A stretch of DNA of 64,000 bases from the NCBI GenBank assembly GCA_963701295.1, contig OY969585.1:2976001-3040000 (forward strand), in the 5' to 3' direction. Below are positions 28,063 to 34,696 of the stretch, piece by piece. Within the stretch, counting starts at the first letter, position 1; each line of letters opens with the position of its first letter. A program made the translations under genes and the position numbers. The notes beneath the pieces are model-generated. The model saw only the letters and a list, made by a program, of their open reading frames with translations. It was not told the origin of the DNA and did no database searches. This DNA comes from Ignavibacteriota bacterium. Lineage in GTDB: Bacteria; Bacteroidota; Ignavibacteria; UBA10030.

Positions 28063-29415
28063 TTATGTCGATGCACTTCTATCCACTTTCTCCAATTTCC
28101 CGCCTTCTTGTTTATCGGCGCGGAGCAAGAGAAGTGAAAAAACCAAACCAATGACGCCGAGCATAGAAAACATGACCATGCTTGCGGTATACGTGTGTGT
28201 TGCATCTCTCAAAAGGCCGTTAAGCCATGGAAAGAGTGCAAGGCCAAAATTTTGGATCATTGTTGTCAAACCAAATGCAGTACCAACTCGATTCTTCTCC
28301 ACAAGAAGCGGAATCGAGGGCCACATTGCAGCCGGAACCATTACAAAAGCTGCTCCGAGTACGATCATAGGAAATGCCGGCGGTATCATCGTAAACGCCA
28401 TTGTAAGAAAAGCTGGGACCATCAGTATAGATCCACCAACCATGATCGTCGCTCGACGACCAAAGCGATCAAGTAATTGTCCGAAGATTGGTGCTAAAAC
28501 CATTGAGGCGAATATAATAATTGTCGTGGTACCGCCTGCCGTGCTGAACATATGGATGACATTGTAAAACACTTGAGTAAAGAATCCACCTTCCGACCCA
28601 ACCGTGAGCGGTAATCCCCATTTACTGTTGAAAAAATCTGTCGAAAGTGCTGTGAAGGGAAAGATGGCTGAGTAGAATGTCAAACAGAGCAGCGTCACAT
28701 ACCAGTAGGAGGAACGAAATTTCTTGATATCCGCAAGAACGATCTTATCGCCGCCCCCTTCTTCCTGCAATTTGAGTTCCCGTTCGCCGTGCCTATCCAA
28801 CATAATATAGAGTGCATTGGCAAGAAGCGATAAACAACAGAATATAACTGCAGCCCATAGTGCTGCACTATAACGGCCAAAGAACTCGGCAATCAACGCT
28901 TCTGTATTAAAACTGAAGAGTGTTCCCAATCGGCTGATGGTGAGCCCTACTCCAAACGCAAACGCTAGTTCCTTCCCCTTAAACCATCGTGTAAATATCG
29001 CACTTTGGGCCACAACCAATGATTCCGAACCCCAGCCAAAAATGAAACGACCAAAATAGAGAATCCAAATGTTCGGCGCTACAGCAACAATCAAGGCTCC
29101 AAGTGTTACGAGCATAGAAAAAAGAAGGCTTGCGCGTCGTGTTCCGATACGGTCAATCAACAAGCCTCCGATGAACACGGAAAGAATAGCCGCAACACTA
29201 TAGAGCGTGTACATTTGCCCTATGGATTCACGGCCGATGCCAAGCGCTTCGATGAGTGTGGGCGCAATTGCACCGACGCTGTCATATGCAAAATAACTGC
29301 CGAATGTCAGCAAGCTCACAACAAAAAGTACTGAATAACGATAAGGTCGACGAGATGGATGGAACCATGATACATTACTAAGAGCATTCAATTGATCAAT
29401 TTCAGTCATAATCAT
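28063..29415 (-). CDS. MFS transporter, MFSD1-like
   Basis: 12 TM pattern, LLTFGSYFAYD N-terminal motif, GLLIDRIG.R, GRFIFG.G.ESL, WFKGKEL. Confidence 0.85.
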   Translation of the reverse strand: MIMTEIDQLNALSNVSWFHPSRRPYRYSVLFVVSLLTFGSYFAYDSVGAIAPTLIEALGIGRESIGQMYTLYSVAAILSVFIGGLLIDRIGTRRASLLFSMLVTLGALIVAVAPNIWILYFGRFIFGWGSESLVVAQSAIFTRWFKGKELAFAFGVGLTISRLGTLFSFNTEALIAEFFGRYSAALWAAVIFCCLSLLANALYIMLDRHGERELKLQEEGGGDKIVLADIKKFRSSYWYVTLLCLTFYSAIFPFTALSTDFFNSKWGLPLTVGSEGGFFTQVFYNVIHMFSTAGGTTTIIIFASMVLAPIFGQLLDRFGRRATIMVGGSILMVPAFLTMAFTMIPPAFPMIVLGAAFVMVPAAMWPSIPLLVEKNRVGTAFGLTTMIQNFGLALFPWLNGLLRDATHTYTASMVMFSMLGVIGLVFSLLLLRADKQEGGKLEKVDRSAST

Positions 29416-29457: not shown

Positions 29458-29493
29458 AAAATAAAAGCGCTGCACGTTTTTCCGTACAGCGCT
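29458..29493 (-). terminator. Intrinsic terminator between pepD and the MFS gene
   Basis: AGCGCTGTACG/CGTGCAGCGCT stem plus TTTATTT. Confidence 0.6.
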
Positions 29494-29538
29494 CTAGGTT
29501 TGCGATGTCTGTACAATTTCTCCTAAACTCTGCTTAAG

Positions 29539-30997
29539 TTATTTTACGTTTTTCAAAATTGCCAGCAAGAAATTCCAGAATTTTTCTACCGTATCAATAT
29601 GGATTTTTTCATCCGGAGAATGCACTCCTTCGAGCGTCGGGCCAAACGACACCATATCTATTCCTGGATATTTTTCACCGATGATCCCGCATTCGAGCCC
29701 GGCATGAATTGCTTTTACTTCTGGCTTTTTCCCTGTAAGGTCTTTATAGGTTTCTCGTGCAATTTTCAGAATCTTCGAGTCCATGTTTGGTTTCCAACCG
29801 GGATATCCATCAGATGTCTCAGCATCTGCACCACCAAGCTGTAGGATTGATGCAACCGTGTGAACAATCTCATCGATCTCAGACGCAACAGAACTTCGCT
29901 GGCTGGTGATCAGGGTAACGCTTTTCGCATCAGTCTTGATAATCGCAACATTGGTGGAAGTTTCGACCAATCCACGAATTTCAGCGCTCATTTTCATGAC
30001 ACCGTGCGGCAATGCGGAGAGTGTTTGAAGGATTTTCTTTTGAATCGCTTTCTTCAACACCTTCCCTTTTTTCTTTCCTTTTACCTCATCAATGAGAATG
30101 GCAAGTTCGGGCTCAACTGTTGAGAGTTCCTCTCTGAGGATGGAATTATATTGCGAAACTACTGCGCTGGCGTCATTCAATTTTTTATTGGGGACGTATA
30201 CAACAGCTTCTGCTTCGCGTGGAATCGCATTACTCTTATTCCCTCCTTCTAATGTCGATATGCGCACACCAAGTTTATCAAGTTCTATCAAAACACGGTT
30301 TAGGAGCTTGAGAGAATTTCCTCGTCCTTTGTCTATCTCTAATCCTGAATGCCCGCCTTTCAATCCTTTGACCTTCACAAGAGCCGGAGCATATTTCAAA
30401 TCGATAGATTCGTACGCGGTTTTCCATGTGCCAGTAGTGTCTTTTCCACCAGAACATCCGACATACAACTCACCTTCCTCTTCAGAATCAAGATTCATGA
30501 GAATCAGTACTCGCAACAAATCCTGGTTGAAGATTATTCGCTCCGGTTAATCCAGTTTCTTCGTCGACGGTAAAGAGAAATTCCAACGGGCCATGCATAG
30601 CCGACGTGTCTTCCATAAGTGCAAGATTCGTCGCCACGGCAATGCCATTGTCGCCACCCAGCGTCGTTCCATTGGCCATTAAATAATTACCGTTCACAAC
30701 TAATTCGAGCGGATCCTTTTCAAAGTTGTGAACTTTTTCCTTATTTTTCTCGCAGACCATATCGAGATGCCCTTGCAGGCAGACCATAGGAACGTTTTCA
30801 CGTCCCTGAGATGCCGGTTTGCGCACAAGAACATTGAGCACCTTATCGCGTTTTGCTTCAAGGCCAAGCTTCTTTGCTGTCTCGACGATGTAATCAGAAA
30901 TTTTCTTTTCATTTTTTGAACCGCGCGGAATTTTGCTAATCTCTGCAAAGTATTTCCACACCAATTCCGGTTTCAAGCCTTCCAATGGATTTGACAT
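29539..30997 (-). CDS. pepD: Aminoacyl-histidine dipeptidase (M20C); +1 frameshift near 30508
   Basis: IPRGS, QGHLDMVCEK, TLGGDNG, DEETGL, then NLDSEE, GGHSG, IHAGLECG, HSPDE. The two ORFs join across one extra base. Confidence 0.9.
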
Positions 30998-31008
30998 AGC
31001 AGCCTCTT

Positions 31009-31389
31009 TTATTTTTTTTGAGAGAATTGCGACTTTTCTTCGTTTTTCAAACCTACATCGATAAATCTATGTGAGTGCAATCGCTGAATATACCTGCGTA
31101 CCCGCGTATCGACAGGTTCAGCAATTGTACCATACTCTTGTTTCATTTTATTTGCAATATCCTGTACTGTCATTGTGCCGTCACAATAATCCCAGACAAA
31201 ACTGCCAAGGATATCAAGTTTCACACGCATATTTGTCCTGTTCTTTTTCGGCGTGAACCATTCAACGAGTTTGCTTTGTGGCTCTGGCACAAGAACGACA
31301 ACTTTTCCCTTCTCCACGAGTTCGGATGGATACAATTGTTTAGGTCTTAATTCAAAAATATCTAATGGCTTCGAATTCTGTCTTATCAA
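31009..31389 (-). CDS. Standalone PqqD-family / RiPP recognition element protein
   Basis: KLDILGSFVWDYCDG..TV.DI...M...YG ... V..YI..L....FI winged-helix signature. Confidence 0.85.
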   Translation of the reverse strand: MIRQNSKPLDIFELRPKQLYPSELVEKGKVVVLVPEPQSKLVEWFTPKKNRTNMRVKLDILGSFVWDYCDGTMTVQDIANKMKQEYGTIAEPVDTRVRRYIQRLHSHRFIDVGLKNEEKSQFSQKK

Positions 31390-31474
31390 CCCTAATCGCT
31401 AACTATTTATTTAAAAATATTTTGTTAAATATATAACACTTCAAACAACCATTAAGTGCCCCTGCCTTGTCAGA

Positions 31475-33564
31475 TTACATCATTGCTGTTGGAGGTGCAG
31501 GTTCGTCTGCCCTTCCTGCTTTCGATAATGGAATATAGATTAAATATAAGGCAAGGATCACAAAAATCGGAATCGCCAGCCACGATGCAATTGATTCAAA
31601 TCCTTCTAATGTCCAGAATTCCGGCTTGCCGCTCATTCGATCCCGAACAAACACAACAGTAGCGATGAACAATCCCATCAATGCCTCTCCTGCAATTAAT
31701 CCAGACGCAGACAAAATTCCGGCGTTCTCGACTCTTGCCTTTTGAGCATCATTATAACCTCGTTGAGAAGCGCGCTTATCGACTAAACCGCGAATTAATC
31801 CGCCGATGAATATTGCAAATGTTGTTTCGAGCGGCAAATACATTCCAACAGAAAATAACATCGGACTTTTTACTTTGATCAAAATTAATGAGATACCCAA
31901 TGCGATTCCAACGAGAACCAACGGCCACGCCATTTCACCACCGACTATTCCTTGCGATAACGCAGCCATTAATCCTGCTTGAGGTGCGGGAAGTTTTGAA
32001 CCGCCAAATCCGCCTGTCAATGGATTGCTCGCAAGATCGGAGTTGTGAAGAACATAGAGCGGGAAGAACATCACTAATCCGGCAAGGATAACGCCGATAA
32101 TATCTCCAACCTGCATCTTCGATGGTGTTCCGCCAAGAATGTGGCCGACTTTAAGGTCTTGAAGCATTTCTCCGGCAACTGCCGATGACACACACACCAC
32201 CGCAGCAACACCAAGAACAGCGGCAACTCCTTGCATTCCTGTGACGCCAATGATTACCATTGTCAATGCAGCCACGACAGTGGTTGCAAGTGTTAATCCA
32301 GAAATAGGATTATTGGATGAACCGATCATACCAACAAGATTTCCCGAAACTGCCGCGAAGAAGAATCCTGCAACCAGCATAACGACAGCGGCAAGGATTG
32401 CACCAAGCAGCATGTTTGTGAAGTAGAAATAAAGCCCGATCATCAATGCAAAGACAACGACGATACCGAGGATGACTGCTTTGAACGAAATATCTTTCTC
32501 GGTTCTTTCTGTCGCAGCTTTTGCAGCAGCAGATTTCTTCACATCAGCAATACCACGCTTGATGCCAAGAATTAAGTTCTTGCGCATTTTCCAAAGAGTG
32601 TAGCATGCGCCAACGAGCATTCCTCCAACTGCAATCGGTCGGACAATGTAGCGATAGAGATGACCGGTGAGTGCAGCCCATGCAGCAGGTGAATCGCCAT
32701 TGCTTGTAACAAGATATTTGTCGATTAATTGAGGCCCAGAAAAAACACTAGCAAGGGAACAAATAATCCCCAAGCAAGAACGCCGCCTGCAAAGTTTAAT
32801 GCTCCGAGTTCCGGTCCGATGATATACCCGACACCAATGTATGCCGGTGTAGCAGCGGGTGCAGAAATTGTGGTGATGCCACCGCCGAGAATTCTTCCCG
32901 AATCCGGTTTCATTCCAAGCTTCACAAATGATTCTTTCACACGTCCGACCATTACTTGAAAATCGTTTGATGAGTGAAAAATTCCCAATCCGTCGATTAA
33001 TTTAATGAATGCGCCGACTGCCATTGCTTTGAACAACGAGACAGCCGCATCTGCTCCGCGTTGACCCGCCTTATGAATTTCAGCTGCTGCGACCGATTCA
33101 GGAAATGGCAGGGTTTGATCTTCTACCATTACGCGCCGTAGAATCGTAACAAACATAATTCCAAGGATGCCGCCAAGAATCATCAGCGATGCAGCGATAA
33201 TATATTCTGTCAGCATGTTTTCCGGCGTGAACTTCCAAATGTGAAGAATCACAAATGCGGGGATCGTAAATATTGCACCGGCTGCTACAGACTCACCAAT
33301 AGAACCAACCGTTCGAGCAAAATTCTCTTCGAGGATGGATCCCTTCATGATTTTGAGTAATGCCATACCGATAACTGCAGCAGGATATGTTGCTGCTATC
33401 GTCATTCCGGCTTTCAAACCGAGGTAAGCATTTGCCGCACCGAGAACCACACACATCACCAAACCGATGATCAGTGCGCGGATTGTAAATTCTTTCATGT
33501 CGGTATTGACAGGAACATACGGGATAAATTTTTTCGGTCCGCCTGTGTTTGTTCCATCTGCCAT
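31475..33564 (-). CDS. OPT family oligopeptide transporter; one-base deletion near 32735
   Basis: EFTIRA, YLGLKAG, LPFPE, GVGYIIG, SSNNPISG, QDLKVGH.LG.TP, APQA. The ORFs join if one base is added in CTGGGCCTCAA. Confidence 0.9.
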
Positions 33565-33597
33565 AAACATCTCCTTACGTTTGAGTGAAGTATGAGA

Positions 33598-34497
33598 TCA
33601 ACGAATAAAAATCGCTTTTGTAACATACCACGCCATATGCGGATTCTCTTTTAAACGACGTGTTGAATAAGCATACCACTGTTCGCCAAACGGCACATAG
33701 ACTCTCAATTGATGTCCATCTTGAACAATCGCGTTTCGGCGTTTCTCGCGCACACCGAGAAGCATTTGAAATTCATAACGCTCTTTTTCCAACCCGTTCT
33801 TTTGTATCATCTCACATGCGCCATCGATTAAATAATCATCGTGTGTAGCAATACCAACATAAGAACCGGCTTCAAGAATAATTCGCAAGAGCTTGAGATA
33901 ATTTTCTCTGATTTCCTGTCGTTCTTTAAAAGCGATTGATGGTGACTCATTGTAAATGCCTTTGCACAGCCGGATATTTGTTCCTTCTTCCACAAGTGCA
34001 TAAACATCGTCTTCACTTCTGCGCATATATGCCTGGATAACTACACCGGTATTTTTAAAACCATCTGCTCGTAGTCGCCGGTACATAGTAAGTGTATCAT
34101 CCGTCGTCGTTGCATCTTCCATATCAATCCGGACAAAGTTATTAAGCCGGTCTGCTTCTTTAATAATTTTCTTAAGATTGCGATAGCCAAGTTCTTTGTC
34201 GATCTTCAGTCCGAGTTGTGTCGGTTTGATGGAGACATTAGAATTTAGTCTATTCTCCTTAATTGATTGGAGAATAGAAAGAACTCCTTTTTTTACTTGT
34301 TCGGTTTCGCCGGCATTTTTCACATCTTCGCCTAACAAATCCATCGTTGCCATTATTCCCTTTTCGTTGAGGTTCTTAGCAACACGAACACCATCGGACA
34401 AACGAACACCGGCAATATACCTTTTTGCCACCTGACCGACTATTGTTTTCGGAATGAACGGAAGTACTGTCGTGATAAGCTGATTCAGTATCGGCAT
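33598..34497 (-). CDS. Monofunctional proline dehydrogenase
   Basis: SIKPTQLG, RIDMED, RLCKGIY, IATHD, FQMLLG, YVPFG..WY.Y..RRL.E. Confidence 0.95.
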   Translation of the reverse strand: MPILNQLITTVLPFIPKTIVGQVAKRYIAGVRLSDGVRVAKNLNEKGIMATMDLLGEDVKNAGETEQVKKGVLSILQSIKENRLNSNVSIKPTQLGLKIDKELGYRNLKKIIKEADRLNNFVRIDMEDATTTDDTLTMYRRLRADGFKNTGVVIQAYMRRSEDDVYALVEEGTNIRLCKGIYNESPSIAFKERQEIRENYLKLLRIILEAGSYVGIATHDDYLIDGACEMIQKNGLEKERYEFQMLLGVREKRRNAIVQDGHQLRVYVPFGEQWYAYSTRRLKENPHMAWYVTKAIFIR

Positions 34498-34582: not shown

Positions 34583-34605
34583 AAAAAACCCTCCAAATTG
34601 GAGGG
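34583..34605 (-). terminator. Hairpin/terminator after the M13 peptidase gene
   Basis: CCCTCCAA/TTGGAGGG inverted repeat plus T6. Confidence 0.6.
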
Positions 34606-34696
34606 CTTAAAAAAGCTGAATATCAGCTAACATCATGATACTCTCAGAAGAATCCGTTAACTCGCTGAAGCCTTCAAGAATGGTAAAAGGAAACTA

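Follow-up and report, generated by a model that had tools for sequence, protein, structure and literature searches.

A conserved subfamily of PqqD-like proteins with the fold of RiPP recognition elements (RREs) is tied to peptide importers rather than to enzymes that make peptides synthesized by the ribosome and modified after translation (RiPPs), and no description of its role was found. The member studied here is a protein of 126 amino acids (aa) matching PF05402, encoded on the minus strand (31009-31389, TTG start) of a 64,000-nucleotide stretch of an Ignavibacteriota genome (contig OY969585.1, positions 2,976,001 to 3,040,000, assembly GCA_963701295.1), which is called the window throughout. 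Its gene lies between the genes of an OPT-family (oligopeptide) transporter (31475-33570, minus strand; PF03169/TIGR00733) and a PepD-type M20 dipeptidase (29539-30997, minus strand; TIGR01893). A sequence-only reading of this locus had proposed a cytoplasmic, peptide-binding adaptor or regulator acting between importer and dipeptidase, as part of a poorly described, non-biosynthetic RRE system. In line with this, literature searches gave no published description of an importer-linked PqqD/RRE system, most subscription journals lying outside their coverage. The RRE-Finder papers report many discrete RRE hits without RiPP machinery (PMC7470986, PMC12710340); the word 'oligopeptide' is absent from their main text, and their data sets may list these proteins.

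RREs serve as markers of RiPP gene clusters. This subfamily scores as PqqD, yet what it marks is peptide uptake, which makes it a large source of misleading RiPP hits: a profile search of 1.84 billion representatives returned 927 clusters (50% identity) at E ≤1e-10. It also represents a clear case of the RRE fold outside biosynthesis. Its occurrence in gut anaerobes that can be cultured (Lachnospira eligens, Roseburia, Clostridium butyricum and Bacteroides finegoldii) makes it accessible to experiment, and it offers a handle on two poorly known carrier groups, the bacterial OPTs and the bacterial relatives of the major facilitator superfamily (MFS) carrier MFSD1.

The importer linkage is conserved across phyla

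Among 61 related genomes, the window's own included, the PqqD-like gene was present in 18 (own included; 17 of 61 by profile). The OPT gene lay directly upstream in all 17 other relatives that had it, a linkage far above chance. pepD followed directly in 15 of these 17; in one relative the contig ended there and in another pepD was located further on. OPTs at 59-63% identity have the PqqD-like gene adjacent in nine of nine cases. Within a phylum sample of 301 genomes, 41 gave a PqqD-like match, 33 of them strong. The eight weak matches (E 1e-7 or worse) were set aside; six of them were fetched and proved to be ordinary PqqD proteins without the insertion described below, three of which adjoin radical SAM genes. 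A motif scan of GTDB gave 243 stretches, 238 of which were confirmed, and the best 80 of the 238 were analysed. These 80 loci came from Acidobacteriota, KSB1, Ignavibacteria, Gemmatimonadota, Deltaproteobacteria, Clostridia, Treponema, Fusobacterium and others. The order OPT-PqqD-pepD is annotated in L. eligens and Peptoclostridium acidaminophilum, and pepV-OPT-PqqD in Enterococcus raffinosus. C. butyricum and the archaeon Halocatena salina carry a minimal OPT-PqqD pair with no adjoining peptidase. Roseburia is also among the carriers.

The 201 loci pooled from all sets yielded 155 non-redundant loci from many phyla; flank lengths vary between the sets, and counts within 6 kb are lower bounds. 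The gene directly upstream encoded an OPT in 131 loci, an MFSD1-like carrier in 11 and another protein in 12, with a contig end in one; the stop of the transporter gene and the start of the PqqD-like gene often overlap or abut. Directly downstream were an M20 peptidase, mostly PepD, in 66 loci, an M29 peptidase in six, a POT carrier in one (L235), another gene in 77 and a contig end in five. In this neighbourhood analysis, which had been named beforehand, the OPT linkage therefore held across phyla. Of 30 Bacteroidales loci, 22 had OPT directly upstream and two had it at a distance of one gene, while four had PqqD-pepD without an upstream transporter.

The transporter itself can be exchanged. 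In nine loci the PqqD-like gene follows an MFSD1-like gene, and in four of the nine no OPT occurs within 8 kb and the only OPT of the genome is distant (32-33% identity). B. finegoldii has an MFS-PqqD pair whose MFS partner is again MFSD1-like. In extended loci the cluster also includes an M29 aminopeptidase and an uncharacterized secreted protein of ~250 aa.

The importer is a steadier partner than the dipeptidase

A sample of 120 Clostridia genomes (one, G440, unscored) contained the PqqD-like protein in 27 genomes, an OPT in 34 and a PepD match in 49; kin are not independent, so no P value is given. By coordinates, 28 of 30 PqqD-like hits were adjacent to an OPT. A PqqD-like gene adjoined 28 of the 30 OPTs with at least 52% identity and none of the seven more distant OPTs, and all 86 genomes that gave no OPT match also lacked the protein. 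It was present in 27 of the 28 genomes with a close OPT, compared with 22 of the 49 PepD-bearing genomes. The importer is thus the steadier partner, and PepD is the commonest third member.

These counts bear on the view that the PqqD-like protein is a partner or activator of a cytoplasmic peptidase (PepD, PepV or M29), to which it would present peptides, much in the way that lasso B1 activates B2, the transporter link reflecting a shared operon. Such a role is consistent with the M20 gene directly downstream in 66 of the 155 loci, with a peptidase of any kind within 6 kb in at least 96, and with five loci that have PqqD-pepD and no upstream transporter (L063, L229, L236, L247 and L250). Moreover, PepD is encoded elsewhere in G088 and in each of the four MFS-PqqD genomes, and one PqqD-PepV fusion was seen (P0192). 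However, five of the 27 Clostridia carriers have no PepD match, including the single-contig genome G382 with three PqqD copies, 27 of the 49 PepD genomes lack the protein, the downstream gene is unrelated in 77 of the 155 loci, and the fusion is represented by one sequence from one contig. We therefore regard a peptidase partner as unlikely. The adaptor proposed earlier is accordingly retained in part: its tie to OPT stood, whereas an obligate link to PepD was weakened by the same Clostridia counts and by 16 OPT-pepD loci that lack the protein.

A fusion search gave four matches among 6818 long candidates. OPT-PqqD (P0190) and the PqqD-PepV sequence P0192 were single sequences from one contig each, and P0191, the C-terminal piece of P0190 on a fimbrillin-like domain, looks chimeric; none of the three was counted as an argument. 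Open frames of 607 aa (G193) and 744 aa (G345) proved to be separate genes with a stop between them.

Some subfamily members are orphans with no nearby transporter (L062 in G088, L253 in G458, L255 in G382, and L128). Judged by sequence reading, their neighbours are dnaJ, GHMP-kinase-like and murC-like genes. The window's genome also has a second OPT of ~32% identity (L201:2791-6098; about 176800-180100 of contig C1), which follows an M20 peptidase gene and has no PqqD; an M49 peptidase gene lies near it on the opposite strand.

No RiPP pathway was found for the protein

The locus had been described as free of RiPP genes, and this held. The window contains no radical SAM gene, against 17 matches across the genome. 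The gaps between the proline dehydrogenase, OPT, PqqD-like and pepD genes measure 27, 85 and 11 bp, so there is no space for a precursor open reading frame between the four. The genome, 99% complete, yielded neither YcaO nor lasso B2, for both of which the controls were positive; a LanC-like cyclase gave no match in the genome, and none in the control genomes either. The PqqD-like gene is the sole PF05402 match above the cut-off among four matches in the genome.

Service to a RiPP or cofactor pathway encoded elsewhere is very improbable. The genome has one radical SAM/SPASM gene, ~627 kb away (L200:7452-8516; about 3633450-3634520 of contig C1), and a radical SAM gene lies downstream in one Bacteroidales locus (L243). 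The SPASM enzyme, however, scores below each of the best 25 NCBIfam cut-offs, and its gene has an MFS_2 carrier gene on one side, an S15 peptidase gene on the other and no adjoining PqqD. In addition, the LppB residue that holds the leader Tyr is replaced by Arg in the subfamily, as detailed below. A co-oriented open reading frame is present in 61 of the 77 loci with another downstream gene; 40 of these were scanned with Pfam and comprised 39 singles and one member of the ~250-aa family. No recurring RiPP enzyme was detected among the 40, a mixed set that includes three radical SAM proteins, two of them MiaB-type judging by their domains. No RiPP cluster that the PqqD-like protein could serve was found elsewhere in the genome. 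With the linkage extending across phyla, the earlier picture of an RRE-fold protein without biosynthetic context, tied to genes of peptide uptake and breakdown, was upheld.

A stand-alone RRE fold distinct from known RiPP and PQQ families

The window protein scored 41.2 bits against PF05402 (cut-off 23.4) and passed none of five RiPP/PQQ-specific NCBIfam models (bits/cut-off: TIGR03859 31.5/46, PRK02079 20.3/101, ScmD 24.5/100, lasso PqqD NF033536 21.1/80, GeoRSP PqqD 18.8/100). AlphaFold2 modelled it as three strands followed by three helices in a winged-helix topology (pLDDT 80), and a typical subfamily member likewise took the RRE fold (pLDDT 90). In a structural search the best match was the C-terminal domain of Rv2067c (8HKR; Z 11.1, root-mean-square deviation 2.6 over 86), followed by TbiB1 (Z 10.3, 2.5 Å over 82 residues), 6JX3 (Z 9.7) and PqqD 5SXY (Z 8.2). 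Foldseek with the window protein gave no match at E ≤0.001, the best being TbiB1 at 1.5e-3.

With the discrete RREs of lasso and LPP systems (TbiB1 5V1U/5V1V, TfuB1 6JX3, LppB 9X8Z and PbaB1 9X90) the protein shares a stand-alone domain of three strands and three helices, a profile match to LppB 9X8Z at E 7.8e-6, and a Phe or Tyr in place of the Phe that divides their cleft. Unlike them, the subfamily is linked to importers, has no precursor, peptidase B2 or cyclase, carries an extra helix between strands 2 and 3, and has Asp and Arg in place of LppB N33 and D70. PqqD of PQQ biosynthesis (3G2B, 5SXY) has the fold in common (Z 7.2 and 8.2) and the PF05402 match above cut-off, but the window protein falls below the TIGR03859 cut-off, has no PqqE-type enzyme nearby and is ~20-30 residues longer. 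The fold is likewise used outside RiPPs in the RRE-like domains of Rv2067c 8HKR and a Rickettsia PKMT; those domains are fused to lysine methyltransferases, whereas the window protein is free-standing beside transporters.

Within the window's genus, the dN/dS of the PqqD-like gene was 0.12-0.16 in five of six pairs and 0.40 in the closest pair, and that of OPT was 0.02-0.06. The PqqD-like gene is thus under purifying selection there.

A winged helix could also bind DNA or RNA, and the protein could then be a peptide-sensing regulator that controls the uptake operon, a role we judge improbable. Fur-type and other regulators were recovered at Z 5-7, the subfamily is basic as a whole (median net charge +4), and PMC7470986 suggests possible DNA binding by some of the discrete RRE hits that lack lasso machinery. 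Nevertheless, RRE-type domains outscored regulators in the structural search, conservation is maximal in the peptide cleft, and the gene lies within the operon, where it is coupled to the transporter gene irrespective of transporter type.

The subfamily has an inserted helix and an altered leader cleft

Two features mark the subfamily. The first is an insertion of ~17 residues between strands 2 and 3 (residues 36-52; 31234-31284, minus strand), basic and hydrophobic in composition. Its length is constant, with 23-24 residues between a Pro and an LD motif in 196 of 229 anchored sequences, and its median net charge in the 229 is +5. It was modelled as a helix (39-48) in the typical member and as a short, low-confidence helix in the window protein.

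The second feature is the cleft. In LppB, N33 and D70 hold the backbone of the leader Pro and the leader Tyr, and in PbaB1 F83 divides the cleft, according to PMC13381572. In an alignment to the solved chains, whose numbers are offset by 18, LppB N33 and D70 and PbaB1 F83 correspond to D59 (codon 31213-31215), R96 (codon 31102-31104) and Y100 of the window protein; PbaB1 has G42 and Q79 at the first two sites. Asp occupies the D59 site in 140 of 142 and 83 of 83 alignment rows, and Arg the R96 site in 139 of 142 and 82 of 83, with Lys in the remainder. The ordinary PqqD proteins inspected keep the Asn in six of six cases and have Asp at the helix-3 site in five of six. The best-conserved residues of the subfamily map onto the leader cleft of solved RREs.

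The cleft is thus conserved, yet, with Asp and Arg replacing the N33 and D70 equivalents, it does not suit a YxxP leader in the manner of LppB. Since PbaB1 has Gly and Gln at these sites, the Asp/Arg change alone is compatible with leader binding. By analogy with E150 and R181 of MFSD1, the Asp/Arg pair could grip the two ends of a short peptide; it could instead form an internal salt bridge.

The invariant Arg suggests one defined ligand group, and the module could import a single special ligand, such as a signalling peptide, a modified peptide or, as with YSL carriers, a chelate of metal and peptide, with the RRE as its specific cytoplasmic receptor. RREs are described as sequence-specific receptors (PMC13381572), and eukaryotic OPT/YSL carriers are described as moving glutathione, folate and metal chelates. 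The recurring neighbours, however, encode general peptidases and dipeptide carriers (PepD, PepV, M29, MFSD1-like and POT), and no metal-uptake, signalling or modifying gene recurs among 39 scanned downstream neighbours. A special ligand is therefore quite unlikely.

A proposed accessory role in peptide uptake

The reading we favour, with about an even chance of being correct, is that this RRE-fold protein acts outside RiPP biosynthesis as an optional cytoplasmic accessory of importers, binding short peptides or a segment of the transporter so as to tune uptake, with peptidases acting downstream. The protein would be co-produced with the transporter, mainly the OPT whose gene lies directly upstream, and its basic-hydrophobic extra helix may place it at the inner face of the membrane. 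In its Asp/Arg cleft the protein would bind short peptides that have been imported, plausibly gripping both charged ends, or else a segment of the transporter exposed to the cytoplasm, and would so tune or buffer uptake. Cleavage of the peptides would follow downstream, by PepD, PepV or M29 peptidases that need not dock on the PqqD-like protein. The fold, the linkage across phyla, the co-occurrence with one OPT group, the switch to MFSD1-like carriers, and the changed yet conserved cleft support this accessory role.

A bolder version is doubtful: the RRE cleft may have been turned into an Asp/Arg clamp for free short peptides, the protein being a membrane-side, ligand-sensing subunit recruited by OPT and bacterial MFSD1 carriers. 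If true, OPT carriers would have in it their first cytoplasmic accessory subunit, and the RRE would have a nutritional, perhaps ancestral, role.

Several observations weigh against an accessory of the importer. In the window's genus a close OPT is present in all 15 genomes and the PqqD-like protein in six, its own included. Of 20 loci fetched from PqqD-negative genomes, 16 have OPT followed by pepD with 75-414 bp between them and no remnant; this lineage can thus do without the protein. A quick tree built from 42 OPTs needs five gains or losses of the PqqD-like gene; all 16 negatives fall in the window's own subclade, a picture biased by their having been chosen for a close OPT. In seven genomes that carry the protein, the sole OPT is a distant one (31-33% identity), and the protein is therefore no subunit dedicated to a single transporter. 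No transporter gene lies directly upstream in 12 of the 155 loci, five of which have PepD directly downstream. Because the OPT and MFS folds are unrelated, direct contact would have arisen twice. The substrate of this OPT group is an assumption taken from its neighbours. Known RREs bind long leaders and are not known to bind di- or tripeptides, and D59 may be merely a helix cap. In amphipathicity the insertion did not clearly exceed its own shuffles (median z 0.41; 11% above 1.64), in a test that dropped 43 of 272 sequences as unanchorable; anchoring to the membrane is therefore an inference.

The C-terminal OPT tail ADEPAPP had been put forward as a ligand. It is absent from 60 of 101 PqqD-linked OPTs, counted by eye and not de-duplicated, and kept in 16 of 16 OPTs without the partner, so it is not a general ligand.

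Locus organization and neighbouring genes

The gene calls bear out the co-oriented, tightly spaced order proline dehydrogenase-OPT-PqqD-like-pepD. The proline dehydrogenase gene (33598-34497, minus strand; PF01619), the first of the predicted unit, is lineage-specific and lies within 6 kb of the PqqD-like gene in 21 of the 155 loci. Terminator-like hairpins on the minus strand, one of 13 pairs after pepD (29464-29495) and one between the M13 peptidase gene and the proline dehydrogenase gene (34586-34608), are weak hints that suggest a four-gene unit, although the terminator scan was at chance level (10 sites against 9.0 expected). A promoter scan (15 sites against 20 expected) was uninformative. 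The M13 and C1B peptidase genes, earlier pointed out as lying nearby, are incidental, since of 40 extended loci only the three closest had M13 linked and not one had C1B. The C-terminal OPT piece scored 207 against TIGR00733 (cut-off 182.5) and the intact G004 orthologue 354; the intact pepD orthologue in G004 scored 607 bits against TIGR01893 (cut-off 343.75). Oligopeptide transport by this OPT is assumed, being predicted from the family name and the neighbours.

Both genes have a broken frame in the assembly. Relative to same-genus genomes, in which both frames are intact, one base is missing from OPT near 32735 and one additional base is present in pepD near 30506. In related metagenome contigs, which represent relatives and not the window's strain, the pepD break was absent in four of four runs and the OPT break in two of four. 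A control took 176 orthologues from a relative: three were genuinely split in the window's assembly, a fourth case was a pair of paralogues, and seven more had a stop within the alignment. Two breaks within 3.5 kb exceed this rate in a comparison made post hoc, and both assembly error and real operon decay are possible. The OPT break falls at a site that reads CCTGG in relatives, and a third split gene occurs in the window at ~9483.

After pepD lies the gene of an MFSD1-like MFS transporter (28063-29415, minus strand), a predicted dipeptide carrier and conserved cluster member. Its product matched mouse MFSD1 (8R8Q) at E 7.5e-51 with phmmer, the next PDB match being 7.1e-5. MFSD1 is a lysosomal dipeptide uniporter in which D60, E150 and R181 are critical (PMC11252000). 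D60, E150, R181 and W373 align with D45, E131, R162 and W365 of the window protein, consistent with sequence kinship; Q176 and N157 are not kept. The window carrier further differs in being bacterial and having no GLMP, and its transport activity is predicted. MFSD1 homologues with the dipeptide-binding residues occur in 45 of the 61 relatives, often adjoining pepD (window, L053-L061, L096 and L113), a linkage that supports a dipeptide substrate. The bacterial comparators discussed in PMC10990142 are POT carriers; the kept residues and the frequent pepD neighbours hint at a family of bacterial dipeptide carriers outside POT.

Other genes recur in the cluster. The ~250-aa protein has a signal-peptide-like start, a CGFGC motif and no Pfam match (L091:11330-12076 and 14 other loci); in class-level relatives its gene lies between an MFSD1-like or PqqD gene and that of an M29 aminopeptidase. 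In several Clostridia an uncharacterized protein of ~120 aa, with one N-terminal membrane segment and no Pfam match, is encoded between PqqD and pepD (L147:6371-6733, L132, L140, L143, L152, L171, L173, L176 and L257). Genes for four-helix bundles of the 23S rRNA IVP family are repeatedly inserted within the cluster (L078, L079, L080, L182 and L183).

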